Below are positions 5,586 to 26,533 of a DNA stretch of 64,000 nucleotides, one piece after another. Location of the stretch: assembly GCF_003334765.1 (NCBI RefSeq), contig NZ_QOWT01000014.1; one strand, written 5' to 3'. Each line of letters begins with the position of its first letter. Positions within the stretch are counted from its first letter, which is position 1. A program made the position numbers and the translations under genes. The DNA comes from Escherichia coli. GTDB lineage: Bacteria > Pseudomonadota > Gammaproteobacteria > Enterobacterales > Enterobacteriaceae. The notes under the pieces were generated by a model, which was given only the letters and a program-made list of their open reading frames with translations, was not told the origin of the DNA and made no database searches.

Positions 5586-6986
5586 ATGCCACATTCCTAC
5601 GATTACGATGCCATAGTAATAGGTTCCGGCCCCGGCGGCGAAGGCGCTGCAATGGGCCTGGTTAAGCAAGGTGCGCGCGTCGCAGTTATCGAGCGTTATC
5701 AAAATGTTGGCGGCGGTTGCACCCACTGGGGCACCATCCCGTCGAAAGCTCTCCGTCACGCCGTCAGCCGCATTATAGAATTCAATCAAAACCCACTTTA
5801 CAGCGACCATTCCCGACTGCTCCGCTCTTCTTTTGCCGATATCCTTAACCATGCCGATAACGTGATTAATCAACAAACGCGCATGCGTCAGGGATTTTAC
5901 GAACGTAATCACTGTGAAATATTGCAGGGAAACGCTCGCTTTGTTGACGAGCATACGTTGGCGCTGGATTGCCCGGACGGCAGCGTTGAAACACTAACCG
6001 CTGAAAAATTTGTTATTGCCTGCGGCTCTCGTCCATATCATCCAACAGATGTTGATTTCACCCATCCACGCATTTACGACAGCGACTCAATTCTCAGCAT
6101 GCACCACGAACCGCGCCATGTACTTATCTATGGTGCTGGAGTGATCGGCTGTGAATATGCGTCGATCTTCCGCGGTATGGATGTAAAAGTGGATCTGATC
6201 AACACCCGCGATCGCCTGCTGGCATTTCTCGATCAAGAGATGTCAGATTCTCTCTCCTATCACTTCTGGAACAGTGGCGTAGTGATTCGTCACAACGAAG
6301 AGTACGAGAAGATCGAAGGCTGTGACGATGGTGTGATCATGCATCTGAAGTCGGGTAAAAAACTGAAAGCTGACTGCCTGCTCTATGCCAACGGTCGCAC
6401 CGGTAATACCGATTCGCTGGCGTTACAGAACATTGGGCTAGAAACTGACAGCCGCGGACAGCTGAAGGTCAACAGCATGTATCAGACCGCACAGCCACAC
6501 GTTTACGCGGTGGGCGACGTGATTGGTTATCCGAGCCTGGCGTCGGCGGCCTATGACCAGGGGCGCATTGCCGCGCAGGCGCTGGTAAAAGGCGAAGCCA
6601 CCGCACATCTGATTGAAGATATCCCTACCGGTATTTACACCATCCCGGAAATCAGCTCTGTGGGCAAAACCGAACAGCAGCTGACCGCAATGAAAGTGCC
6701 ATATGAAGTGGGCCGCGCCCAGTTTAAACATCTGGCACGCGCACAAATCGTCGGCATGAACGTGGGCACGCTGAAAATTTTGTTCCATCGGGAAACAAAA
6801 GAGATTCTGGGTATTCACTGCTTTGGCGAGCGCGCTGCCGAAATTATTCATATCGGTCAGGCGATTATGGAACAGAAAGGTGGCGGCAACACTATTGAGT
6901 ACTTCGTCAACACCACCTTTAACTACCCGACGATGGCGGAAGCCTATCGGGTAGCTGCGTTAAACGGTTTAAACCGCCTGTTTTAA
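5586..6986 (+). CDS. sthA: soluble pyridine nucleotide transhydrogenase
   Basis: 466 aa ORF with FAD-binding GSGPGG and the disulfide-oxidoreductase fold; recognised as SthA/UdhA. Confidence 0.95.
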
Positions 6987-7886
6987 AACTTTATCGAAAT
7001 GGCCATCCATTCTTGCGCGGATGGCCTCTGCCAGCTGCTCATAGCGGCTGCGCAGCGGTGAGCCAGGACGATAAACCAGGCCAATAGTGCGGCGTGGTTC
7101 CGGCTTAATGCACGGCAGATAAACAACCCCATCGCGTTTGCGCTCCGGCGGCACAGCCAGCGCTGGCAGTAAAGTGATCCCGCTACCTGCCGCCACCATG
7201 TTGCGCAGAGTTTCCAGGCTGGTCGCGCGGAAGTGTGTATCTTCATCCGCCCCGGCTTCAAAACAGAAACCCATTGCCTGATCGCGCAAACAGTGACCAT
7301 CTTCCAGCATCAGCAGTTTTTCCCCTGCCAGATCGGCCATCGGTACGCATTCGCGGTTCGCCCACGGGTGATCTTCATAGATAGCCAGCAACATTGGCTC
7401 ATCAAACAACGGCACTTCAATGAATGCTTCGCTCTCTTTCACCAGCGCGAGGATCACGCAATCGAGTTTGCCGCTGTCCAGTTGCGCCAGTAACTGGTGG
7501 GTCTGTGCTTCATGCAGATACATTTCCAGCTTTGGAAAGGTCTGGTGCAGCATAGGGATAATATGCGGTAGCAGGTACGGTCCAACTGTGGGAATCAAAC
7601 CAATGTGCAGCGGTCCGGACATCGTCTCGCCCTGCTGGCTTGCCATCTCTTTAAGGACTTTCACCTCACGCAGCACGGTACGCGCCTGATCCACCAGCAG
7701 CATTCCCGCCTGGGTGAACAACACTTTACGGCTGGTCCGCTCCAGCAACATCACGCCCAGCTCATCTTCCAGCTTACGAATTTGCCCGCTAAGCGTCGGC
7801 TGGCTAACGTGGCAGGAATCTGCCGCACGCCGAAAATGGCGGTGTTCAGCCAATGCCACCAGGTACTCAAGATCACGAATATTCAT
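6969..7886 (-). CDS. oxyR: LysR-family hydrogen peroxide-responsive regulator
   Basis: Recognised OxyR sequence ([40 protein letters not shown]...); start at MNIRD gives 305 aa. The 3' end overlaps the sthA 3' end by 18 bp. Confidence 0.95.
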
Positions 7887-13154: not shown

Positions 13155-15806
13155 ATGAACGAACAATATTCCGCATTGCGTAGTAATGTCAGTATGCTCG
13201 GCAAAGTGCTGGGAGAAACCATCAAGGATGCGTTGGGAGAACACATTCTTGAACGCGTAGAAACTATCCGTAAGTTGTCGAAATCTTCACGCGCTGGCAA
13301 TGATGCTAACCGCCAGGAGTTGCTCACCACCTTACAAAATTTGTCGAACGACGAGCTGCTGCCCGTTGCGCGTGCGTTTAGTCAGTTCCTGAACCTGGCC
13401 AACACCGCCGAGCAATACCACAGCATTTCGCCGAAAGGCGAAGCTGCCAGCAACCCGGAAGTGATCGCCCGCACCCTGCGTAAACTGAAAAACCAGCCGG
13501 AACTGAGCGAAGACACCATCAAAAAAGCAGTGGAATCGCTGTCGCTGGAACTGGTCCTCACGGCTCACCCAACCGAAATTACCCGTCGTACACTGATCCA
13601 CAAAATGGTGGAAGTGAACGCCTGTTTAAAACAGCTCGATAACAAAGATATCGCTGACTACGAACACAACCAGCTGATGCGTCGCCTGCGCCAGTTGATC
13701 GCCCAGTCATGGCATACCGATGAAATCCGTAAGCTGCGTCCAAGCCCGGTAGATGAAGCCAAATGGGGCTTTGCCGTAGTGGAAAACAGCCTGTGGCAAG
13801 GCGTACCAAATTACCTGCGCGAACTGAACGAACAACTGGAAGAGAACCTCGGCTACAAACTGCCCGTCGAATTTGTTCCGGTCCGTTTTACTTCGTGGAT
13901 GGGCGGCGACCGCGACGGCAACCCGAACGTCACTGCCGATATCACCCGCCACGTCCTGCTACTCAGCCGCTGGAAAGCCACCGATTTGTTCCTGAAAGAT
14001 ATTCAGGTGCTGGTTTCTGAACTGTCGATGGTTGAAGCGACCCCTGAACTGCTGGCGCTGGTTGGCGAAGAAGGTGCCGCAGAACCGTATCGCTATCTGA
14101 TGAAAAACCTGCGTTCTCGCCTGATGGCGACACAGGCATGGCTGGAAGCGCGCCTGAAAGGCGAAGAACTGCCAAAACCAGAAGGCCTGCTGACACAAAA
14201 CGAAGAACTGTGGGAACCGCTCTACGCTTGCTACCAGTCACTTCAGGCGTGTGGCATGGGTATTATCGCCAACGGCGATCTGCTCGACACCCTGCGCCGC
14301 GTGAAATGTTTCGGCGTACCGCTGGTCCGTATTGATATCCGTCAGGAGAGCACGCGTCATACCGAAGCGCTGGGCGAGCTGACCCGCTACCTCGGTATCG
14401 GCGACTACGAAAGCTGGTCAGAGGCCGACAAACAAGCGTTCCTGATCCGCGAACTGAACTCCAAACGTCCGCTTCTGCCGCGCAACTGGCAACCAAGCGC
14501 CGAAACGCGCGAAGTGCTCGATACCTGCCAGGTGATTGCCGAAGCACCGCAAGGCTCCATTGCCGCCTACGTGATCTCGATGGCGAAAACGCCGTCCGAC
14601 GTACTGGCTGTCCACCTGCTGCTGAAAGAAGCGGGTATCGGGTTTGCGATGCCGGTTGCTCCGCTGTTTGAAACCCTCGATGATCTGAACAACGCCAACG
14701 ATGTCATGACCCAGCTGCTCAATATTGACTGGTATCGTGGCCTGATTCAGGGCAAACAGATGGTGATGATTGGCTATTCCGACTCAGCAAAAGATGCGGG
14801 AGTGATGGCAGCTTCCTGGGCGCAATATCAGGCACAGGATGCATTAATCAAAACCTGCGAAAAAGCGGGTATTGAGCTGACGTTGTTCCACGGTCGCGGC
14901 GGTTCCATTGGTCGCGGCGGCGCACCTGCTCATGCGGCGCTGCTGTCACAACCGCCAGGAAGCCTGAAAGGCGGCCTGCGCGTAACCGAACAGGGCGAGA
15001 TGATCCGCTTTAAATATGGTCTGCCAGAAATCACCGTCAGCAGCCTGTCGCTTTATACCGGGGCGATTCTGGAAGCCAACCTGCTGCCACCGCCGGAGCC
15101 GAAAGAGAGCTGGCGTCGCATTATGGATGAACTGTCAGTCATCTCCTGCGATGTCTACCGCGGCTACGTACGTGAAAACAAAGATTTTGTGCCTTACTTC
15201 CGCTCCGCTACGCCGGAACAAGAACTGGGCAAACTGCCGTTGGGTTCACGTCCGGCGAAACGTCGCCCAACCGGCGGCGTCGAGTCACTACGCGCCATTC
15301 CGTGGATCTTCGCCTGGACGCAAAACCGTCTGATGCTCCCCGCCTGGCTGGGTGCAGGTACGGCGCTGCAAAAAGTGGTCGAAGACGGCAAACAGAGCGA
15401 GCTGGAGGCTATGTGCCGCGATTGGCCATTCTTCTCGACGCGTCTCGGCATGCTGGAGATGGTCTTCGCCAAAGCAGACCTGTGGCTGGCGGAATACTAT
15501 GACCAACGCCTGGTAGACAAAGCACTGTGGCCGTTAGGTAAAGAGTTACGCAACCTGCAAGAAGAAGACATCAAAGTGGTGCTGGCGATTGCCAACGATT
15601 CCCATCTGATGGCCGATCTGCCGTGGATTGCAGAGTCTATTCAGCTACGGAATATTTACACCGACCCGCTGAACGTATTGCAGGCCGAGTTGCTGCACCG
15701 CTCCCGCCAGGCAGAAAAAGAAGGCCAGGAACCGGATCCTCGCGTCGAACAAGCGTTAATGGTCACTATTGCCGGGATTGCGGCAGGTATGCGTAATACC
15801 GGCTAA
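13155..15806 (+). CDS. ppc: phosphoenolpyruvate carboxylase
   Basis: 883 aa ORF recognised as Ppc; conserved VLTAHPTE and C-terminal ...MRNTG. Confidence 0.97.
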
Positions 15807-15821
15807 TCTTCCTCTTCTGCA

Positions 15822-15850
15822 AACCCTCGTGCTTTTGCGCGAGGGTTTTC
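15822..15850 (+). terminator. intrinsic terminator downstream of ppc
   Basis: GC stem ACCCTCG...CGAGGGT followed by TTTTC. Confidence 0.7.
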
Positions 15851-15987
15851 TGAAATACTTCTGTTCTAACACCCTCGTTTTCAATATATTTCTGTCTGCA
15901 TTTTATTCAAATTCTGAATATACCTTCAGATATCCTTAAGGAATTGTCGTTACATTCGGCGATATTTTTTCAAGACAGGTTCTTACT

Positions 15988-17721
15988 ATGCATTCCACAG
16001 AAGTCCAGGCTAAACCTCTTTTTAGCTGGAAAGCCCTGGGTTGGGCACTGCTCTACTTTTGGTTTTTCTCTACTCTGCTACAGGCCATTATTTACATCAG
16101 TGGTTATAGTGGCACTAACGGCATTCGCGACTCGCTGTTATTCAGTTCGCTGTGGTTGATCCCGGTATTCCTCTTTCCGAAGCGGATTAAAATTATTGCC
16201 GCAGTAATCGGCGTGGTGCTATGGGCGGCCTCTCTGGCGGCGCTGTGCTACTACGTCATCTACGGTCAGGAGTTCTCGCAGAGCGTTCTGTTTGTGATGT
16301 TCGAAACCAACACCAACGAAGCCAGCGAGTATTTAAGCCAGTATTTCAGCCTGAAAATTGTGCTTATCGCGCTGGCCTATACGGCGGTGGCAGTTCTGCT
16401 GTGGACACGCCTGCGCCCGGTCTATATTCCAAAGCCGTGGCGTTATGTTGTCTCTTTTGCCCTGCTTTATGGCTTGATTCTGCATCCGATCGCCATGAAT
16501 ACGTTTATCAAAAACAAGCCGTTTGAGAAAACGTTGGATAACCTGGCCTCGCGTATGGAGCCTGCCGCACCGTGGCAATTCCTGACCGGCTATTATCAGT
16601 ATCGTCAGCAACTAAACTCGCTAACAAAGTTACTGAATGAAAATAATGCCTTGCCGCCACTGGCTAATTTCAAAGATGAATCGGGTAACGAACCGCGCAC
16701 TTTAGTGCTGGTGATTGGCGAGTCGACCCAGCGCGGACGCATGAGTCTGTACGGTTATCCGCGTGAAACCACGCCGGAGCTGGATGCGCTGCATAAAACC
16801 GATCCGAATCTGACCGTGTTTAATAACGTAGTTACGTCTCGTCCGTACACCATTGAAATCCTGCAACAGGCGCTGACCTTTGCCAATGAAAAGAACCCGG
16901 ATCTGTATCTGACGCAGCCGTCGCTGATGAACATGATGAAACAGGCGGGTTATAAAACCTTCTGGATCACCAACCAGCAGACGATGACCGCCCGCAATAC
17001 CATGCTGACGGTATTTTCGCGCCAGACCGACAAGCAGTACTACATGAACCAGCAACGTACGCAGAGTGCGCGTGAATACGACACCAACGTGCTGAAGCCG
17101 TTCCAGGAAGTGCTGAATGACCCTGCGCCGAAGAAACTGATCATTGTTCATCTGCTGGGTACGCATATCAAATACAAATACCGCTACCCGGAAAATCAGG
17201 GCAAGTTTGATGGCAATACCGATCATGTTCCGCCGGGATTAAACGCGGAAGAGCTGGAGTCATATAACGATTATGACAACGCTAACCTGTATAACGATCA
17301 TGTGGTTGCCAGCCTGATTAAAGACTTTAAAGCAGCAAACCCGAACGGTTTCCTGGTTTATTTCTCTGACCACGGTGAAGAGGTTTACGACACGCCGCCG
17401 CACAAAACTCAGGGGCGTAATGAGGACAACCCGACGCGTCATATGTACACCATTCCGTTCCTGCTGTGGACGTCAGAAAAATGGCAAGCGACTCATCCCC
17501 GTGATTTCTCGCAGGATGTTGATCGTAAATACAGCCTGGCGGAACTGATCCACACCTGGTCAGATTTGGCGGGCTTATCTTACGACGGTTACGATCCAAC
17601 CCGTTCAGTGGTGAATCCGCAGTTCAAAGAAACTACCCGCTGGATTGGTAACCCGTATAAGAAAAACGCACTGATCGATTACGACACACTGCCCTATGGC
17701 GATCAGGTGGGTAATCAGTAA
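15988..17721 (+). CDS. eptC: phosphoethanolamine transferase (LPS core modification)
   Basis: 577 aa ORF with N-terminal multi-TM region and C-terminal sulfatase-like domain; recognised as EptC/YijP/CptA. Confidence 0.9.
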   Translation: MHSTEVQAKPLFSWKALGWALLYFWFFSTLLQAIIYISGYSGTNGIRDSLLFSSLWLIPVFLFPKRIKIIAAVIGVVLWAASLAALCYYVIYGQEFSQSVLFVMFETNTNEASEYLSQYFSLKIVLIALAYTAVAVLLWTRLRPVYIPKPWRYVVSFALLYGLILHPIAMNTFIKNKPFEKTLDNLASRMEPAAPWQFLTGYYQYRQQLNSLTKLLNENNALPPLANFKDESGNEPRTLVLVIGESTQRGRMSLYGYPRETTPELDALHKTDPNLTVFNNVVTSRPYTIEILQQALTFANEKNPDLYLTQPSLMNMMKQAGYKTFWITNQQTMTARNTMLTVFSRQTDKQYYMNQQRTQSAREYDTNVLKPFQEVLNDPAPKKLIIVHLLGTHIKYKYRYPENQGKFDGNTDHVPPGLNAEELESYNDYDNANLYNDHVVASLIKDFKAANPNGFLVYFSDHGEEVYDTPPHKTQGRNEDNPTRHMYTIPFLLWTSEKWQATHPRDFSQDVDRKYSLAELIHTWSDLAGLSYDGYDPTRSVVNPQFKETTRWIGNPYKKNALIDYDTLPYGDQVGNQ

Positions 17722-17740
17722 TTATCAGCCAGGCGCTATT

Positions 17741-17825
17741 TGCCGGATGCGACGCTTGACGCGTCTTATCCGGCCTACAGATCGCGGCGGTAGGCTGGAT
17801 AAGGCGTTTACGCCACATCCGGCAA
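17741..17825. repeat. REP pair (BIME) downstream of eptC
   Basis: TGCCGGATGCGACGCTTGACGCGTCTTATCCGGCCTACA and inverted GTAGGCTGGATAAGGCGTTTACGCCACATCCGGCA. Confidence 0.85.
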
Positions 17826-17858
17826 TACAACTGCCGCAATGTTTACATCGAACTCCCC

Positions 17859-17888
17859 TCAGGCCACACTTTTCAGGTGGCCTTTTTT
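17859..17888 (+). terminator. intrinsic terminator between eptC and yijO
   Basis: AGGCCAC-ACTTTTCAG-GTGGCCT followed by TTTTTT. Confidence 0.7.
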
Positions 17889-17935
17889 AATAATGCCAGT
17901 TACTGTTTTCCCGTCTACATACCTAAGGGAATAAC

Positions 17936-18787
17936 ATGTATCACGACGTCAGCTATCTGCTCTCCCGCCTGATCAACGGCCCGCTGTCCCTGCGCCAGAT
18001 TTACTTTGCCAGCAGTAACGGCCCGGTGCCCGATCTTGCGTATCAGGTCGATTTTCCACGGCTGGAAATTGTGCTGGAAGGTGAGTTTGTTGATACCGGC
18101 GCTGGAGCAACGTTAGTTCCCGGCGATGTGCTGTACGTTCCTGCTGGTGGCTGGAATTTTCCACAATGGCAAGCCCCCGCTACTACCTTTAGCGTGCTGT
18201 TTGGCAAACAGCAACTCGGCTTCAGCGTCGTGCAATGGGATGGCAAACAATATCAAAATCTGGCGAAGCAACACGTCGCCCGACGCGGCCCACGCATAGG
18301 TTCTTTTCTGCTACAAACGCTCAATGAAATGCAAATGCAGCCGCAGGAGCAGCAAACGGCAAGGCTTATCGTCGCCAGCCTGCTTAGCCACTGCCGCGAT
18401 TTGCTTGGCAGCCAAATCCAGACCGCCTCACGCAGCCAGGCACTATTTGAAGCTATTCGCGATTATATCGACGAACGCTATGCCTCCGCGCTTACCCGCG
18501 AATCTGTTGCACAGGCGTTTTATATTTCGCCAAATTACCTCTCGCACCTGTTTCAAAAAACGGGGGCCATTGGTTTTAACGAATACCTGAATCACACGCG
18601 ACTGGAGCACGCTAAGACGTTATTGAAAGGCTATGACCTGAAGGTAAAAGAAGTGGCGCACGCCTGCGGCTTTGTCGACAGCAACTACTTCTGCCGTCTG
18701 TTTCGTAAAAACACCGAACGCTCGCCGTCGGAATATCGCCGGCAGTACCACAGCCAACTGACAGAAAAACCGACTACTCCAGAATAA
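17936..18787 (+). CDS. yijO: AraC-family transcriptional regulator of unknown target
   Basis: 283 aa ORF with a C-terminal AraC-type HTH (YISPNYLSHLFQK ... YFCRLFRK); position matches K-12 yijO. Confidence 0.85.
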   Translation: MYHDVSYLLSRLINGPLSLRQIYFASSNGPVPDLAYQVDFPRLEIVLEGEFVDTGAGATLVPGDVLYVPAGGWNFPQWQAPATTFSVLFGKQQLGFSVVQWDGKQYQNLAKQHVARRGPRIGSFLLQTLNEMQMQPQEQQTARLIVASLLSHCRDLLGSQIQTASRSQALFEAIRDYIDERYASALTRESVAQAFYISPNYLSHLFQKTGAIGFNEYLNHTRLEHAKTLLKGYDLKVKEVAHACGFVDSNYFCRLFRKNTERSPSEYRRQYHSQLTEKPTTPE

Positions 18788-19115
18788 GATGGGTTTGCTG
18801 CGGCGCAGAAAGCACTTTGCGCACCGCGCTCATTACCCGCTGCGGCTCACGCAGGAATGCGTAGATGCTGCATTGCACATAGCGGCAATGTTCAAATCGC
18901 TCGGCACCGGCAAGCTCGATATCCGTAATCAACAGAGCAACATCCGCCCGGCGGATATCCTCATCCGCTAAACGATTCTCCGTTCCCAGCGCGCCCTGAG
19001 TTTCAATGCTGACTCCCCACTTCTCTAACAGGCACAACTTTTCCAGCCGTTCCGCCGCCATATAAGTATGCGCCACGCCGCTTACGCAGGCGGTTACTGC
19101 CACCAGGTATGCCAT
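18774..19115 (-). CDS. frwD: PTS fructose-like EIIB component 2
   Basis: Start at MAYLVAVTACVSGVAHTYMAAE gives 113 aa; fructose-type IIB phospho-Cys motif (ACxSGVAHT). The 3' end overlaps the yijO 3' end by 14 bp. Confidence 0.88.
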   Translation of the reverse strand: MAYLVAVTACVSGVAHTYMAAERLEKLCLLEKWGVSIETQGALGTENRLADEDIRRADVALLITDIELAGAERFEHCRYVQCSIYAFLREPQRVMSAVRKVLSAPQQTHLILE

Positions 19116-19116
19116 T

Positions 19117-19995
19117 TTAACCTCCCACGGTAACCTGAAGTCCGGCCCGTTCTGCCATTTCGCGCATCGTTGCCACATCAGCTGACGACGGCGCAGGCAC
19201 CTCTTTCATCGACCATGTTTTCCCCAGCAGGCGGTATTTCGGTTCGCCGTACTGATGAAACGGTAACAGATGGATCTGCCTGATATTCAGCGGGATCAGT
19301 ACATCCAGCGCCTGCTGCATATTCTCCCGGCTGAGCGTGAAACCAGGGATCAGCGGTAAACGCGGGATCACGTTGACGCCCTCACTCACCAGCAAACGCA
19401 GATTCTCCAGCACGCGTGGCAGGTTCATCTTCACCACATCCCGCGCCTGAGTCGCGTCCATAATTTTTAAATCGAACAACACTTCATCGCACAATTTCGC
19501 CAGCGGTAATAGCTTGCTGGCTGGTGCGTCTCCGGCAGTTTCAATGGCGCATGACACACCCCACAGCCGCAGTCGCTGTAAAAAACGGGTAGCAAACTCC
19601 GCCTGCATTAACACTTCGCCGCCAGAAAGCGTGACGCCGCCGCCGGACGTGCGAAAGAAAATGTCATCTTTCATCACTTCCCGTTCCAGAGCGTCAAGGC
19701 TGATATCGCGACCAATCCGTTCAAACGCCCCGGAGGGGCATTCATCCGCATCACGCAAACATTTCGCACAGTGCAGACATTTCGCCTCTCTGCGTACCGT
19801 CTGGATTTTGCCGGAGATCGACTCCGGATTAGCACACCACGGGCAAAGATGCGGACAGCCTTTAAAAAAGACCACCGTACGAATGCCCTCGCCGTCATTC
19901 AGTGAATAACGCTGAATGTTGAAAATGCGCGCCACATCATCGCGGCGCGTTTCCACAACGTTACAGCTGATGCGCTGTCCGGCGGATGATGTCAT
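19117..19995 (-). CDS. pflC: glycyl-radical enzyme activating enzyme (radical SAM)
   Basis: Start at MTSSAGQ gives 292 aa; radical-SAM CPHLCPWC motif plus a second Cys cluster CLHCAKCLRDADECP. Confidence 0.9.
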   Translation of the reverse strand: MTSSAGQRISCNVVETRRDDVARIFNIQRYSLNDGEGIRTVVFFKGCPHLCPWCANPESISGKIQTVRREAKCLHCAKCLRDADECPSGAFERIGRDISLDALEREVMKDDIFFRTSGGGVTLSGGEVLMQAEFATRFLQRLRLWGVSCAIETAGDAPASKLLPLAKLCDEVLFDLKIMDATQARDVVKMNLPRVLENLRLLVSEGVNVIPRLPLIPGFTLSRENMQQALDVLIPLNIRQIHLLPFHQYGEPKYRLLGKTWSMKEVPAPSSADVATMREMAERAGLQVTVGG

Positions 19996-22258
19996 CCTGG
20001 ATCTCCTTCGACAGTTCGACAAAGAAGGCGCTGTATCCGGCAACGCGCACCACCAGCCCGGCATAATCTTGTGGGCGCTGTTGCGCTTCCCGCAACGTGT
20101 CGGCGTTCACCACGTTAAACTGAATATGTTGTAACTTAAGCTGGGTAAACGCCCGTAAGAAGTCGGCCAGTTTGCGTAATCCTGCTTCACCTTCCAGGGT
20201 CGCCGGAGTGAATTTCACGTTCAGCAACGTACCGTTAGACAGCAGCGTGTTATCGAGCTTACTGACTGACTTCAGTACCGCTGTTGGCCCTTGTGCGTCC
20301 TGGCCCAGCATGGGTGACAAGCCGCCGTCTGCCAGCTGTTCTCCGGCAAAACGACCGTCTGGCGTCGCGCCAACCACCGATCCCAACGGGACGTGAGCAG
20401 AAACGGTATACGATCCCGGCGTGAAGTAGCCGCCGCGCGGGTTCTGGTATTTTTCCACTTCTTTGCAGTAGTGGCGCAACAGTTCGGCGCTGATGTTATC
20501 CACCTCGTCGATATCGTTACCGTATTTCTCGAAGCGGTTAATTAAGCGAGCGCGGACTTTTTCGCCTTCTGGCGTTGCGAAGTTGGCTTTTAATACCGAC
20601 AGCAATTCGTCAAAACTTAAACGCTGTTGCTCAAAAACCATCCCTTTCAACGCATGGAGAGAATCGCTCAGGTTGGCGATACCGATCCCCTGTACGCCGG
20701 AGAAGTTATAACGCGCGCCGCCATCGGTAATATCGCGGCCTTTTTCCAGACAATCGCTGATAAACGATGAGAGCAGCGGTACAGGTGCCCAGTCGCGATG
20801 GCCGATATCACAAATATTGCTGCCCTCAACCATCAGGGTGATGTAGTGGCTGATCTTGGCGCGGATCTGCTCCAGTAAACCTTCATAAGTCAGCGCAGCA
20901 TTGCCTTCATTTTCATGCAGGCAGATTTCCATCACTTTCAGCAGATTAAACATCGCGATGTCATGCAAGCCGTAGGTTCTGCCGGGAATAGATAATTCCA
21001 CACAGCCCACTACGGAATAGTCGCGCGCATCTTCCAGCGAAACGCCACGGTTGAGGAACGCTGGCACCACCACTTCATCGTTAAATATTTGCGGAATACC
21101 GGTGCCGAAGCGAATGGTTTCGGCGGTTTTCATCAGGAACGGCGTGTCGATCAAGGCGTTAGTGCGCACGCCGAGGTTCGGTTGCGGTAATTGCACGCTT
21201 TGATAGGCGTCAAGGCAAAGGAACGAAAGCACGTTCACCGCGCTACGTCCGTTCTCGGTTAACCCGCCGAGCAGTGCGGTATAGCCGGTCGGGAAACCGG
21301 CGAAATAACGCGCGCTACTGGTGGAGCGCAACAGCACGATGTCGTTGCATTTCACCCATAAAGATTCGAGCAGTTCTTTCAGGAACGCCGCATCTTCGCC
21401 CTGGGTTAATGATGTCTGATAGAACGGCAACATATACTGGTCGAAGCGCCCCAACGATAGCGAACTGGCGTTGGATTCGTATTGCAGAATGATGTTCATG
21501 TACCAGAATAACTGGCACGCCTGCCAGAACGTCTGCGGCTTATGTTGCGCGTTATGGCGGGAGATCTCTGCAATAGTCAGCAGCTCTTCGCGACGCTGGG
21601 CATCTGTGCAGTTTGCCGCCATCGTTTCCGCCAGTTCGGCGTAACGCAAAATGTGTTTCTGCGAGGCTTCCAGCAGTAACAACGCGGCCTGATAAAAGTG
21701 ATTCTCCGGCTGTTGCTGACAATGTTGCTGCATCTGTGCCACCAGCTCACCCAGCCCGTGATTCAACAGGCGTGGGTAATCAATAATAATGTGCCCCTGG
21801 CCTTTATCCGTCTGGTTGATGCTGAAAATCTGCGTGTTGGTCGCGGCTTTTACTTCATCTGTCATCTGCCCGTTGATGAAATCTTTCATCGAACGTTTTT
21901 CCCAGTACGGGAACAACTCTTCACGGTAGATACGTTTATCTTCTTCGCTGATAGCAAAGCGGTCCTGCGGACGCGTCGGGAATTGATCCAGCTCTTTCAG
22001 CAGCCAGTAAGGGTCCATTTCCGGCGACATAATCCCGGCGCGCGGTTTTACGGTGCGGTTACCGGCAATCAGTTCTTCATCACGAATCGAAATTTCAACA
22101 TGTTCAAGGATATACGCTGTTGCTTTCGCCCGGCGCAATATCACCGGTTCGCCTTCGGTTTGCCGATGGCTGGCGGTATAAAGCAGCGCCCGCTCCAGCG
22201 AGATTTCACGGGTATTGGCAAACAGTGCAGTTTTGAGGCGAGAGATACGATTCGTCAT
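19961..22258 (-). CDS. pflD: glycyl radical enzyme (annotated formate acetyltransferase 2; true activity unassigned)
   Basis: 765 aa ORF with C-terminal glycyl radical motif RVAGYSA and active-site region VVGCVELSIPG. Confidence 0.9.
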   Translation of the reverse strand: MTNRISRLKTALFANTREISLERALLYTASHRQTEGEPVILRRAKATAYILEHVEISIRDEELIAGNRTVKPRAGIMSPEMDPYWLLKELDQFPTRPQDRFAISEEDKRIYREELFPYWEKRSMKDFINGQMTDEVKAATNTQIFSINQTDKGQGHIIIDYPRLLNHGLGELVAQMQQHCQQQPENHFYQAALLLLEASQKHILRYAELAETMAANCTDAQRREELLTIAEISRHNAQHKPQTFWQACQLFWYMNIILQYESNASSLSLGRFDQYMLPFYQTSLTQGEDAAFLKELLESLWVKCNDIVLLRSTSSARYFAGFPTGYTALLGGLTENGRSAVNVLSFLCLDAYQSVQLPQPNLGVRTNALIDTPFLMKTAETIRFGTGIPQIFNDEVVVPAFLNRGVSLEDARDYSVVGCVELSIPGRTYGLHDIAMFNLLKVMEICLHENEGNAALTYEGLLEQIRAKISHYITLMVEGSNICDIGHRDWAPVPLLSSFISDCLEKGRDITDGGARYNFSGVQGIGIANLSDSLHALKGMVFEQQRLSFDELLSVLKANFATPEGEKVRARLINRFEKYGNDIDEVDNISAELLRHYCKEVEKYQNPRGGYFTPGSYTVSAHVPLGSVVGATPDGRFAGEQLADGGLSPMLGQDAQGPTAVLKSVSKLDNTLLSNGTLLNVKFTPATLEGEAGLRKLADFLRAFTQLKLQHIQFNVVNADTLREAQQRPQDYAGLVVRVAGYSAFFVELSKEIQDDIIRRTAHQL

Positions 22259-22308
22259 GAGGAACTCCTGTGGGAAAGCGAACCCGCCCTTGCGAGCGGG
22301 AGAAGAAC

Positions 22309-22629
22309 TTAAGCGGTTTGCGCCAGGTGAGCTTCAATTTTGCTCATAATGGCGTCAGCACGTTTTACTGCATCGCTGATGTTGACGCGCACGATGGTCT
22401 TGCCAGCAAAACGCTCTTCAAACTTGATGCCGATATCTTTGGTCAGAATCACCATATCAGCGCTCGCCACATCTTCCGCAGTCAGTTCATTTTCCAGACC
22501 AATTGACCCCTGGGTTTCTACTTTCACTTCCCAGCCTTTCGCTTTCGCGGCACTTTCCAGCGCCTCTGCTGCCATATAGGTATGGGCAACACCTGAAGGA
22601 CATGCGGTTACTGCAATAATTTTCGTCAT
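22309..22629 (-). CDS. frwB: PTS fructose-like EIIB component 1
   Basis: 106 aa ORF with MTKIIAVTACPSGVAHTYMAAE (IIB-Fru-type phospho-Cys motif). Confidence 0.9.
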   Translation of the reverse strand: MTKIIAVTACPSGVAHTYMAAEALESAAKAKGWEVKVETQGSIGLENELTAEDVASADMVILTKDIGIKFEERFAGKTIVRVNISDAVKRADAIMSKIEAHLAQTA

Positions 22630-22643
22630 GGCTCGTTCCTCAA

Positions 22644-23723
22644 TTAATTAATTTCAAAATCCAAATCCAGGTCGTCTTCTTTTTCATCAGTCGAAGACCC
22701 ATTTTTACGCGCCAGACTTTTCAGCACGTTCACACAAACAGCCGTCACCACTGCTCCGACAGCCACTGCTGCGATATAACCCAGCTTGCCTTCAACCACC
22801 GGCAGCACAATCAGACCACCCCAGCCTGCATAGCACTGCGCACCGACCAGCGCCGCAGTTACTGCACCACAAACTGAACCGACCATGATGGAAGGAATGA
22901 CACGCAGCGGATCGGCAGCGGCGAAAGGAATCGCCCCTTCAGTAACGCCAACACAGCCCATCACCAGTGCCGCTTTGCCGGTTTCGCGCTCTTCTGCGGA
23001 GAAATTTTTACGACCAATCAGCGTCGCCAGCCCCATCCCCAGCGGCGGGATACAAATACCCACGGCAGCGATGGCCACCACGGTATAAACACCCTGAGCA
23101 ACGCAAATCAGCATGAAGGCATAGGCCACTTTGTTAACCGGACCGCCCATATCGAACGCCAGCATCAGACCCATGATCACCGCCAGCATAACAATGCTGC
23201 CCTGCTGCATCCCCTGAAGCCACTGAGTCAGGCTGTTGGTCAACGCCCCTACAGGCTCGCCCAAGCCCCACATCATGATGCCTGCGGTAATCAGTGTGCC
23301 GACGATAGGAATAATGAAGATAGGCATCACCGAGCGCAGAACTTTATGCACCGGAATTTTCTTCAGGTAATGCACCACGATGCCGCCGATAATCCCGGCG
23401 ATCAGTGCACCAAAGAAGCCCGCACCAAAGCTGTTACCAACCCAGGCACCGATAGCGCACGGAGCCAGCGCAGAACGCTCTGCAATGGAATAACCGATGT
23501 ACGCTGCGAGGAAAGGCACCATCAGCGTCAAGCCCGCAACGCCGATATCAAACAGTTTTTTCAGATTTGGATCGGCTACGGCATCCGGCACTGCGCCTTT
23601 GCCATACAACATGACGGAAACCGCCAGCAAAATACCGCCCGATACCACGAAGGGAATCATGTGTGAAACGCCCGTCATTAAATGCTGACGGGTATTTTTC
23701 AGGATCTGCACCAACTCATTCAT
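22644..23723 (-). CDS. frwC: PTS fructose-like EIIC permease
   Basis: 359 aa polytopic membrane ORF; EIIC-Fru family glycine-rich loops. Confidence 0.9.
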   Translation of the reverse strand: MNELVQILKNTRQHLMTGVSHMIPFVVSGGILLAVSVMLYGKGAVPDAVADPNLKKLFDIGVAGLTLMVPFLAAYIGYSIAERSALAPCAIGAWVGNSFGAGFFGALIAGIIGGIVVHYLKKIPVHKVLRSVMPIFIIPIVGTLITAGIMMWGLGEPVGALTNSLTQWLQGMQQGSIVMLAVIMGLMLAFDMGGPVNKVAYAFMLICVAQGVYTVVAIAAVGICIPPLGMGLATLIGRKNFSAEERETGKAALVMGCVGVTEGAIPFAAADPLRVIPSIMVGSVCGAVTAALVGAQCYAGWGGLIVLPVVEGKLGYIAAVAVGAVVTAVCVNVLKSLARKNGSSTDEKEDDLDLDFEIN

Positions 23724-24031
23724 AAGCTGCTCCCGGGCTTGCGAAAGCCCATGTCCATATTTTTGATGGAGGAAACAATAGGCAATCGCAGGCGGAGCAA
23801 ACAGTGGATAAAAAGGCCATTTACTGGACTTTTGTAATATCAGTACAAAAATGCGATCCGCCTCATAACTTGCGATAAACCGGAAGCATGCCGCAAAACA
23901 GCGTCTTGTGAGACGCGTCGCAAATTGACGGTTACATTACATTTGTCCAGCTTTTGGCAGATTTGTCACATGGCAGGCCGTTGCCGTGCGCTCTTATCCT
24001 GTAAACAGAAAACCGTACCGGGAGAGAGGCA

Positions 24032-26533
24032 ATGGCCCTGATTGTGGAATTTATTTGTGAGCTACCTAACGGCGTACATGCGCGTCCGGCAAGCCACGTT
24101 GAAACGCTGTGTAATACTTTTTCATCACAAATTGAGTGGCATAACCTGCGCACTGACCGCAAGGGCAACGCCAAAAGCGCCCTTGCGCTGATTGGCACCG
24201 ATACGCTGGCGGGCGATAACTGCCAGTTACTGATTTCCGGGGCCGACGAACAGGAAGCGCACCAGCGTTTAAGCCAATGGCTGCGCGATGAATTCCCCCA
24301 CTGCGATGCGCCGCTGGCGGAAGTTAAATCTGACGAACTGGAACCACTGCCGGTTTCACTGACCAATCTGAATCCGCAAATTATCCGCGCCCGCACCGTG
24401 TGCAGCGGTAGTGCAGGCGGCATTCTGACGCCGATCTCTTCTTTAGATCTCAATGCGCTGGGTAATCTTCCCGCAGCCAAAGGCGTTGACGCCGAGCAAT
24501 CCGCACTGGAAAACGGCCTGACGCTGGTACTGAAAAACATTGAGTTTCGTCTGCTGGATAGCGACGGTGCTACCAGCGCGATTCTGGAAGCTCACCGATC
24601 CCTGGCTGGCGATACTTCCCTGCGCGAACATTTACTGGCAGGCGTCAGCGCCGGATTAAGCTGCGCCGAAGCAATTGTTGCCAGCGCGAATCACTTTTGC
24701 GAAGAGTTTTCCCGTTCCAGCAGCAGCTACCTGCAAGAACGTGCCCTGGACGTACGCGACGTCTGCTTCCAGTTACTCCAGCAAATCTACGGTGAGCAAC
24801 GCTTCCCGGCACCGGGCAAACTGACGCAGCCCGCCATTTGTATGGCTGATGAACTGACCCCCAGCCAGTTCCTCGAACTGGATAAAAATCACCTCAAAGG
24901 ATTGTTGCTCAAAAGCGGCGGCACCACCTCACATACGGTGATCCTTGCCCGTTCGTTCAACATTCCAACGCTGGTTGGTGTGGATATTGATGCCCTTACT
25001 CCGTGGCAGCAACAAACGATTTATATCGACGGCAACGCCGGGGCGATTGTGGTTGAGCCAGGGGAAGCCGTAGCTCGTTATTATCAGCAAGAAGCCCGCG
25101 TACAGGACGCCCTGCGTGAGCAACAGCGTGTCTGGCTGACCCAACAAGCCCGTACCGCTGACGGTATCCGCATTGAAATTGCCGCTAACATCGCTCACTC
25201 CGTGGAAGCGCAGGCCGCATTCGGCAATGGTGCGGAAGGCGTTGGTTTGTTCCGCACTGAAATGCTCTATATGGATCGCACCAGCGCACCGGGCGAAAGC
25301 GAGTTGTACAACATTTTTTGTCAGGCGCTGGAATCCGCCAACGGACGCAGCATTATTGTGCGCACTATGGACATTGGCGGCGACAAACCCGTTGATTATC
25401 TGAACATTCCCGCAGAGGCAAACCCGTTCCTCGGTTATCGCGCCGTGCGTATTTATGAAGAGTACGCGTCGTTGTTTACCACGCAGCTACGGTCGATCCT
25501 CCGCGCCTCCGCTCACGGCAGCCTGAAAATCATGATCCCGATGATCTCCTCAATGGAAGAGATCTTATGGGTGAAAGAAAAACTGGCGGAAGCCAAACAG
25601 CAACTACGTAACGAACACATTCCGTTTGATGAGAAAATCCAGCTCGGCATCATGCTGGAAGTGCCGTCGGTGATGTTCATCATCGATCAATGCTGCGAAG
25701 AGATTGATTTCTTTAGTATTGGTAGTAATGACCTGACGCAGTATCTGCTGGCGGTGGATCGCGATAACGCTAAGGTTACTCGTCACTACAACAGCCTGAA
25801 TCCGGCATTCTTGCGGGCGCTCGATTACGCCGTGCAAGCGGTGCATCGCCAGGGCAAATGGATTGGTCTGTGCGGTGAGCTGGGAGCGAAAGGTTCCGTG
25901 CTGCCGTTGCTGGTCGGCTTAGGGCTGGATGAACTCAGCATGAGCGCACCATCAATTCCGGCGGCGAAAGCTCGGATGGCGCAACTTGATAGCCGTGAGT
26001 GCCGCAAGTTGCTCAACCAGGCAATGGCCTGCCGTACTTCGCTGGAAGTGGAACACCTGCTGGCGCAATTCCGCATGACCCAACAAGACGCACCGCTGGT
26101 CACCGCCGAGTGCATCACACTGGAAAGCGACTGGCGCAGCAAAGAAGAAGTGCTCAAAGGCATGACCGATAACCTGCTGCTGGCGGGCCGCTGCCGCTAT
26201 CCGCGTAAACTGGAAGCCGACTTGTGGGCGCGCGAGGCCGTTTTCTCTACCGGTCTGGGCTTTAGTTTTGCCATTCCACACAGCAAATCAGAACACATTG
26301 AGCAATCCACCATCAGCGTGGCGCGTCTGCAAGCGCCGGTGCGCTGGGGCGATGATGAAGCGCAATTCATCATTATGTTAACCCTGAACAAACACGCTGC
26401 GGGCGATCAGCATATGCGCATTTTCTCGCGCCTCGCTCGCCGCATCATGCACGAAGAATTCCGTAACGCGCTGGTTAACGCCGCCTCTGCCGACGCTATC
26501 GCCAGCCTGCTGCAACATGAACTGGAACTGTAA
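24032..26533 (+). CDS. ptsA: multiphosphoryl transfer protein: HPr-like, Enzyme I-like and EIIA(Fru)-like domains
   Basis: 833 aa ORF: N-terminal HPr-like His motif (NGVHARPA), central PEP-utilising His motif ([13 protein letters not shown]) and EI TIM-barrel motifs, C-terminal EIIA motif (AIPHSKSEH). Confidence 0.9.

Follow-up and report, generated by a model that had tools for sequence, protein, structure and literature searches.

The convergent yijO-frwD junction of Escherichia coli and YijO as a probable local AraC-type regulator of the divergent frwC and ptsA promoters

Regulators of the AraC/RhaS type act as local activators at the araBAD and rhaBAD promoters, where activation is co-dependent on CRP. 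Genes which converge from opposite strands can, on the other hand, form excludons of the convergent type, in which overlapping 3' transcripts lead to transcriptional interference and to processing by RNase III. A third type of control is provided by EIIB(Glc), which sequesters Mlc, and which can serve as a model for a partnership between the PTS protein FrwD and the regulator YijO.

Overlapping genes have been surveyed in an E. coli reference genome, with 75 convergent pairs among 663 overlapping gene pairs (Huvet and Stumpf 2014, PMC4161906). Compilations of AraC-family factors give YijO as uncharacterised (PMC4797297, PMC9308461), and a published experiment linking it to any promoter or gene was not found in the literature (PMC4797297, PMC9308461, PMC8464067). 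Role and regulation of ptsA-fsaB-gldA, the genes transcribed away from the frw cluster, have likewise been called not completely clear (PMC6643234).

At the locus described here, yijO and frwD, the last gene of the presumed frw operon, overlap tail to tail by 14 bp. The overlap itself is already known from the standard annotation and from a published list of excludons and is, as one of approximately 75 convergent coding overlaps in E. coli, statistically not unusual. New with respect to the earlier literature are the age of the overlap and the constraint on its synonymous sites, besides the missing intrinsic terminators, the linkage of distant and paralogous modules and a candidate regulatory box.

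An ancient and frozen junction

The window, the whole stretch of 64,000 nucleotides that was analysed (RefSeq assembly GCF_003334765.1, contig NZ_QOWT01000014.1), is E. coli K-12-type DNA with 100% identity to K-12 derivatives, and the RefSeq annotation of an identical K-12-type genome leaves the ends of yijO and frwD unchanged (Table 1). The 14 bp comprise the stop codon of frwD, residues 111-113 of FrwD and part of codon 110 and, on the other strand, residues 281-283 of YijO, part of codon 280 and the yijO stop codon. Thereby the TAA of yijO sits in frwD codons 110-111 and the frwD stop, read as CTA, in yijO codons 280-281, with the proteins ending in ...TEKPTTPE (YijO) and ...QQTHLILE (FrwD). 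As stop codons are unambiguous, the overlap is independent of the choice of start codons.

Table 1. Features at the yijO-frwD junction and in the adjacent frw/ptsA region, with positions in the window.
Feature	Position	Strand	Description
REP/BIME-type repeats	17705-17865		eptC-yijO spacer; match the REP-derived Rfam family naRNA4 below the gathering threshold (PMC2965389)
yijO CDS	17936-18787	+	283 aa, AraC/XylS-family regulator; stop TAA 18785-18787; ORF call, RefSeq-matched
Convergent overlap CTACTCCAGAATAA	18774-18787	both	14 bp common to the 3' ends of yijO and frwD
frwD CDS	18774-19115	-	113 aa, FrwD-type PTS EIIB; ATG at 19115; stop TAG (CTA on +) 18774-18776
C-rich, G-poor tract	18908-19090	+	RNA 120-300 nt past the yijO stop; C 36-40%, G 15-19%, C/G 1.9-2.5
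Rest of presumed operon reading into yijO	19117-23723	-	frwC-frwB-pflD-pflC, with frwD last
pflC	19117-19995	-	coordinates transferred from the annotation of an identical K-12-type genome
pflD	19961-22258	-	transferred likewise
frwB	22309-22629	-	transferred likewise
frwC	22644-23723	-	transferred likewise
Candidate YijO operator, frwC promoter	23804-23836	-	18-nt box ATTTACTGGACTTTTGTA (23819-23836, + strand) and proximal half-site
CRP-like site TGTGAGACGCGTCGCA	23907-23922		TGTGA-N6-TCGCA; conserved whether or not a species has frw
Second candidate operator, facing ptsA	23940-23970	+	direct repeat ATTTGTCCAG / ATTTGTCACA, cores 20 nt apart
ptsA (frwA)	24032-26533	+	multiphosphoryl-transfer protein; divergent from frwC; heads ptsA-fsaB-gldA

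Structure, domains and orthologues document that each of the two opposed reading frames is a genuine protein-coding gene. The C-terminal double helix-turn-helix of the AraC type is recognized in YijO at residues 192-270 (HTH_18, PF12833, E 4.5e-21) and the last 13 residues form a variable tail, while the N-terminal domain has no significant Pfam match besides a weak cupin-like one (JmjC_2, E 0.024) and is conserved as a small family of 159 representative clusters out of 1.84 billion. With one genome considered per species, YijO orthologues are found in 80 species. FrwD has a PTS_IIB domain, and all its 113 residues are visible in the crystal structure PDB 4TN5. The residues encoded by the overlap are located outside both Pfam domains and are variable in sequence.

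The C-terminal tail of FrwD forms an extra beta-strand in the 4TN5 crystal, the reality of which has been left as a question by the authors of the structure (PMC4916401). FrwD-type EIIBs carry a tail of alternating hydrophobic residues (HLILE, AEITL, YHI, KLEL, TLDIL, VIDL) with or without an overlap with the regulator gene, as seen upon comparison of window positions 18774-18806 (FrwD residues ~103-113) with the loci L082, L085, L088, L093 and L096. Such a shared strand-like tail bears on whether strand beta-6 of 4TN5 is genuine.

A 74-nt probe of the junction matches 5,417 of the 5,426 complete E. coli genomes, 4,931 of these at 99% identity or more, and the junction thus is part of the core genome of E. 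coli. Strain T28R (NZ_CP142708.1) matches only the first 298 nt of a 1.5-kb probe, and the features at this position are an AraC-type regulator and an EIIC gene, which suggests a deletion fusing yijO to frwC. In strain C600, IS5 is located just upstream of yijO, and an IS5 insertion upstream of yijO has also been described for an osmotically evolved strain (PMC3588905).

Beyond E. coli, the overlap was surveyed in 80 Enterobacteriaceae loci, one genome for each species with YijO, and in one Edwardsiella locus. The frwD gene adjoins yijO in 52 of the 80 Enterobacteriaceae loci, and 45 of these 52 species share an overlap of exactly 14 bp, the other seven having overlaps of 0, 4, 8 (three species), 11 and 29 bp. 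Within the overlap, the third codon positions of frwD show entropies of 0.69, 0 and 0.68 versus a mean of ~1.3 outside, and those of yijO 0.35, 1.09, 0 and 0.43 versus ~1.3 in the upstream part of the gene, so that synonymous sites of both genes are approximately three times less variable in the overlap than outside. The yijO stop codon (TAA or TGA), for example, requires that FrwD codon 110 end in a pyrimidine, and loss of either stop codon adds tens of residues to the respective protein. The overlap is therefore an ancient tail-to-tail junction, frozen because each stop codon lies in the codons of the other gene and because its loss would extend the protein. Purifying selection alone would already hold the stop codons in place, so that the conserved 14 bp are no proof of a function of the overlap.

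Transcript ends at the junction

There is no intergenic DNA between yijO and frwD, and a consensus scan as well as a scan for hairpins with U-tracts detected no credible intrinsic terminator within ~440 nt after the yijO stop. Approximately 60 nt after the frwD stop, a weak hairpin occurs together with the U-run UGUUUUUA, which was rejected as a terminator as the pairing is not conserved (RNAalifold consensus -0.6 kcal/mol over 52 species); conserved Lys-Asn codons of yijO, read antisense, account for the U-run. A bidirectional intrinsic terminator, a GC-rich hairpin flanked by A- and U-tracts, was not found at the gene ends. An Rfam search of positions 15800-24200 did not recover a family at the overlap, with the sub-threshold REP-like matches upstream of yijO as the only hits. 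The C-rich, G-poor tract downstream of the yijO stop (Table 1), with a base composition of the kind favoured by Rho, is a candidate Rho-utilisation region. A promoter-like site which spans the overlap (18758-18785) agrees in 9 of 12 positions and was disregarded, the region being poorer in such sites than shuffled sequence.

The first-pass annotation of this DNA had described the 14-bp convergent overlap of yijO and frwD, which proved exact as the stop codons read from the sequence and the RefSeq ends agree, and had noted that no room is left for a terminator, which the scans of both strands corroborate. Without such room, each transcript has to end within the other gene. A compilation from 58 RNA-seq data sets names frwD-yijO in its Table 1 as one of 165 convergent excludons of MG1655 and reports no functional test of the pair (PMC12288877). 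The list backs the suggestion, also made in the first-pass annotation, that the two transcripts could collide, in so far as the transcripts overlap. Any two genes with overlapping coding regions must yield such transcripts when expressed, and interference may be negligible with both genes weakly expressed in laboratory conditions.

YijO-family regulators and their candidate operators

The presumed operon that reads into yijO is densely packed. The co-directional genes pflD and pflC overlap by 35 bp (19961-19995) and pflC is separated from frwD by 1 bp; the tight packing from frwC to frwD is consistent with one operon. The operon is not universally present beside yijO, as 27 species keep yijO without frwCB-pflDC-frwD and ptsA, and in these fsaB follows approximately 200 bp on, on the same strand (loci extending past yijO without an adjoining frwD, one short contig excepted). 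These species, represented by loci L018, L027, L076-L081 and 19 others, include Salmonella arizonae and diarizonae, Klebsiella, Kosakonia and some Citrobacter. In Kluyvera and Pseudocitrobacter frwD-frwB-frwC are present and pflDC is absent. Citrobacter sp. R56 (L010, ~6862-7035) possesses an apparent decayed 3' remnant of frwD after yijO, followed by the box described below; the remnant indicates that the frw-less state arose by deletion in that lineage. Edwardsiella hoshinae (L042, 1-12843) encodes a YijO protein of 84% identity together with frwD-pflCD-frwBC-ptsA, with an overlap of 4 bp. Not ppc and eptC but treB, treR and an EamA-type gene adjoin this block, which suggests that it has moved as a unit that included the regulator.

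A search with FrwD remained within the family, the best 120 matches all being Enterobacteriaceae orthologues, and the distant context was reached via the N-terminal domain of YijO instead. Nine distant full-length members of the YijO family were examined, eight of which are informative (for P0174 the contig is too short). GC contents of 35-46% and the levels of identity place these loci outside the Enterobacteriaceae orthologue set. Seven of the eight informative loci have Frw-type PTS or fsa genes as neighbours. Four of the homologues, with 30-46% identity, are met at their 3' end by a convergent gene for a FrwD-type EIIB at spacings of -11, -6, +7 and +107 bp, and the remainder of the operon differs, with pflDC in one, a GatZ-like and a transketolase gene in another and a PtsA-like gene alone in a third. 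Another homologue faces a convergent IIB/EIIA operon and a divergent EIIABC gene, and one is divergent from an fsa gene. In L096, the regulator gene is located within a PTS operon, with a FrwD-type IIB gene directly next to it, co-directional and with a 4-bp overlap. In Photobacterium (P0162), an EIIA gene 1.8 kb upstream is the only PTS neighbour.

A paralogous arrangement is found in E. coli itself. The paralogue, YpdC, matches YijO over its full length (36% identity, E 2e-52), and ypdC is located tail to tail with fryA, which ends the fry PTS operon, at a distance of 2 bp (L097 7131-10486; NC_000913.3 2501130-2504485). ChIP-exo peaks have not been obtained for YpdC in a study in which YijO was outside the tested set (PMC8464067).

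The spacer between frwC and ptsA (23724-24031) contains two candidate operators and, between them, a CRP-like site (Table 1). The 18-nt box of the first operator follows the consensus ATTTACTGGAyTTTTGTA; read on the sense strand of frwC, the cores GTCCAG (23824-23829) and ATCCAC (23804-23809) are 20 nt apart and located 23 nt before a -10-like TATTGT (23775-23780). With up to 3 mismatches, the box occurs once per locus in 62 of the 80 Enterobacteriaceae loci, with no other match in ~1 Mb, and in all 49 loci with a measurable distance the frwC ATG follows it after 83-96 bp. Among the distant loci, it is present without mismatch in L092, with 1 mismatch in L085, with 2 in L091 and with 4 in L082 and L093, and in each case a PTS or fsa gene starts 78-96 bp downstream of it; by chance, ~0.01 matches with 2 or fewer mismatches are estimated for the 217 kb of distant loci. 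A box-like match in the P0178 locus (L096), with 4 mismatches and inside a gene, is probably a chance match, and the 18-kb ypdC/fry locus contains no copy at 4 or fewer mismatches. Compared by eye, the box fits none of the consensuses of CRP, FNR, Cra, NagC/Mlc, ArcA or sigma-54. The only gene common to all loci that bear the box is the YijO-family regulator, but as the loci have been selected by that gene this is an association and no proof, and another PTS- or fsa-linked factor could bind the box.

On the opposite side, the ATTTGTCCAG / ATTTGTCACA repeat, with the cores GTCCAG (23945-23950) and GTCACA (23965-23970), is located 24 nt before a -10-like TATCCT (23995-24000) and hardly varies among 28 aligned species, frw-less ones included. 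The CRP-like site would be located near -92.5 of the predicted ptsA promoter; the -10 elements as well as all positions relative to transcription starts are predictions. In frw-less species the homologue of the E. coli frwC-ptsA spacer lies between yijO and fsaB; there the frwC-side box has decayed and the repeats on the ptsA/fsaB side are nearly invariant, a pattern that fits two promoters served by one factor.

Taken together, YijO probably regulates the divergent frwC and ptsA promoters locally; the convergent position of its gene is unusual for a local regulator of the AraC type. The first-pass annotation had considered YijO as a possible local regulator of the frw/pflDC cluster. Local action gains real but indirect support from the linkage to the module in seven of eight distant loci, from ypdC/fryA and from the box at fixed distance upstream of frwC, but frw/pflDC cannot be the sole target as yijO survives in 27 species that lack frw, pflDC and ptsA. 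As it is kept there beside fsaB with the same control region, the likely target is the whole frwC/ptsA-fsaB-gldA control region. That YijO activates PfrwC and PptsA (or PfsaB) locally via the conserved boxes is what we moderately favour.

The mechanism we propose is a module of a YijO-family AraC-type regulator and a Frw-type fructose-like PTS, joined tail to tail, in which each transcript would end inside the other gene, probably by Rho, and would leave complementary 3' ends. YijO would bind the direct-repeat boxes of the divergent control region and act as a CRP-assisted activator of frwCB-pflDC-frwD and ptsA-fsaB-gldA. Upon induction of frw, transcription that meets no terminator could continue antisense across yijO and constitute a built-in negative feedback on the regulator. 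As a whole, with a frozen junction of one module, Rho-type ends, CRP-assisted activation and a possible feedback, this explanation seems to us marginally more probable than its failure; feedback by read-through across yijO is, taken on its own, speculative and rather doubtful.

The linkage can also be read as neutral compaction, in which stop codons drifted between unrelated neighbours and the overlap was kept since stop codon loss is harmful, with the target of YijO elsewhere or with none nearby. The frequency of convergent overlaps, 75 in a single E. coli reference genome, the variable nature of the overlapped residues outside both Pfam domains, the 27 species that keep yijO without frw and the lack of published experimental data on YijO in the literature searched all agree with such an origin. 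Drift between unrelated neighbours, however, does not readily account for the tail-to-tail pairing of YijO-type regulator and FrwD-type EIIB that recurs at 30-46% identity with a different remaining operon, nor for its recurrence in the paralogous ypdC/fry module, for a specific box that tracks the regulator family across distant loci or for the Edwardsiella block, which includes yijO in another genomic context. We consider neutral compaction unlikely, though a serious candidate.

Alternatively, adjacency might reflect a protein partnership, in analogy to EIIB(Glc) and Mlc, with FrwD reporting the phosphorylation state of the PTS to YijO by phosphotransfer or sequestration and the DNA overlap being incidental to tight linkage. 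FrwD is a second EIIB beside the transport EIIB FrwB, and the IIB beside the regulator is, according to a bit-score matrix, always FrwD-type with the inner IIBs being FrwB-type. Locus L082, a 9.7-kb contig that lacks an EIIC gene, even combines just the regulator, a FrwD-type IIB and a PtsA-like protein, and the strand-like FrwD-type tail, the extra beta-strand of the crystal (PMC4916401), is shared even where the genes do not overlap. Yet a Pfam search of YijO identified neither a PRD nor another known PTS-regulated domain, YijO is kept without FrwD or PtsA in the 27 species, and YpdC has no FrwD-type neighbour. Such a partnership, which is compatible with activation by YijO and can coexist with it, appears improbable to us. 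Equally improbable is a combined scheme in which the terminator-less junction would be a selected device of the YijO/YpdC family, with YijO activating frw, read-through silencing yijO to render induction self-limiting and FrwD feeding the PTS phosphorylation state to YijO. An annotation artefact, with one of the frames not a real gene or ending elsewhere, is practically ruled out by the stop codons read directly from the sequence, by the visibility of FrwD residues 1-113 in 4TN5 and by the retention of both tails and both stops in dozens of species, and no point in its support was found.

YijO belongs to the E. coli transcription factors that still lack a known target, and neither a regulator nor an inducer has been assigned to the frw/pflDC and ptsA-fsaB-gldA clusters. 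Activation by YijO, if true, would give this y-gene regulator a role and provide a handle on the induction of a cryptic PTS and glycyl-radical-enzyme pathway. The outcome is a cheaply testable prediction, consisting of base-precise candidate operators at two divergent promoters and a feedback loop via shared 3' ends.

Comparison with known systems

With CRP-co-dependent activators of the AraC/RhaS type, YijO shares the C-terminal double helix-turn-helix and the location of its gene beside the putative targets. The candidate operators, pairs of direct repeats spaced by ~20 bp, would reach the -35 region of the predicted promoters, with a predicted CRP-like site near -92.5 at ptsA. In contrast to those systems, yijO is convergent with the end of the target operon, neither divergent nor upstream, and the N-terminal domain of YijO constitutes a small family of its own instead of belonging to the AraC_binding Pfam family.

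A close parallel is the ypdC/fryBC-ypdFE-fryA module, in which the regulator gene likewise meets the end of a fructose-like PTS operon tail to tail. The partner in this module is fryA, encoding an EI-HPr-EIIA fusion, and not a FrwD-type EIIB gene.

Among convergent overlapping pairs, as explained by loss of stop codons or extension in models of the Fukuda/Rogozin type, yijO-frwD is an ordinary member, with two real genes on opposite strands and common 3' ends, a short overlap, tails outside of domains and a conservation above that of flanking synonymous sites. Nothing essential sets it apart; the depth of its conservation is notable, as at least 15 genera share the 14 bp and a comparable junction occurs in distant YijO homologues and in the paralogous module.

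As in convergent excludons, a concept of Sesto et al., the genes converge with no terminator between them, and the pair is included in the ExcludonFinder table of such excludons (PMC12288877). Unlike in typical cases, the coding sequences overlap and not only the untranslated regions, and as one partner is probably the regulator of the operon of the other, the arrangement would amount to a feedback loop, in contrast to a switch between functions that are not related.
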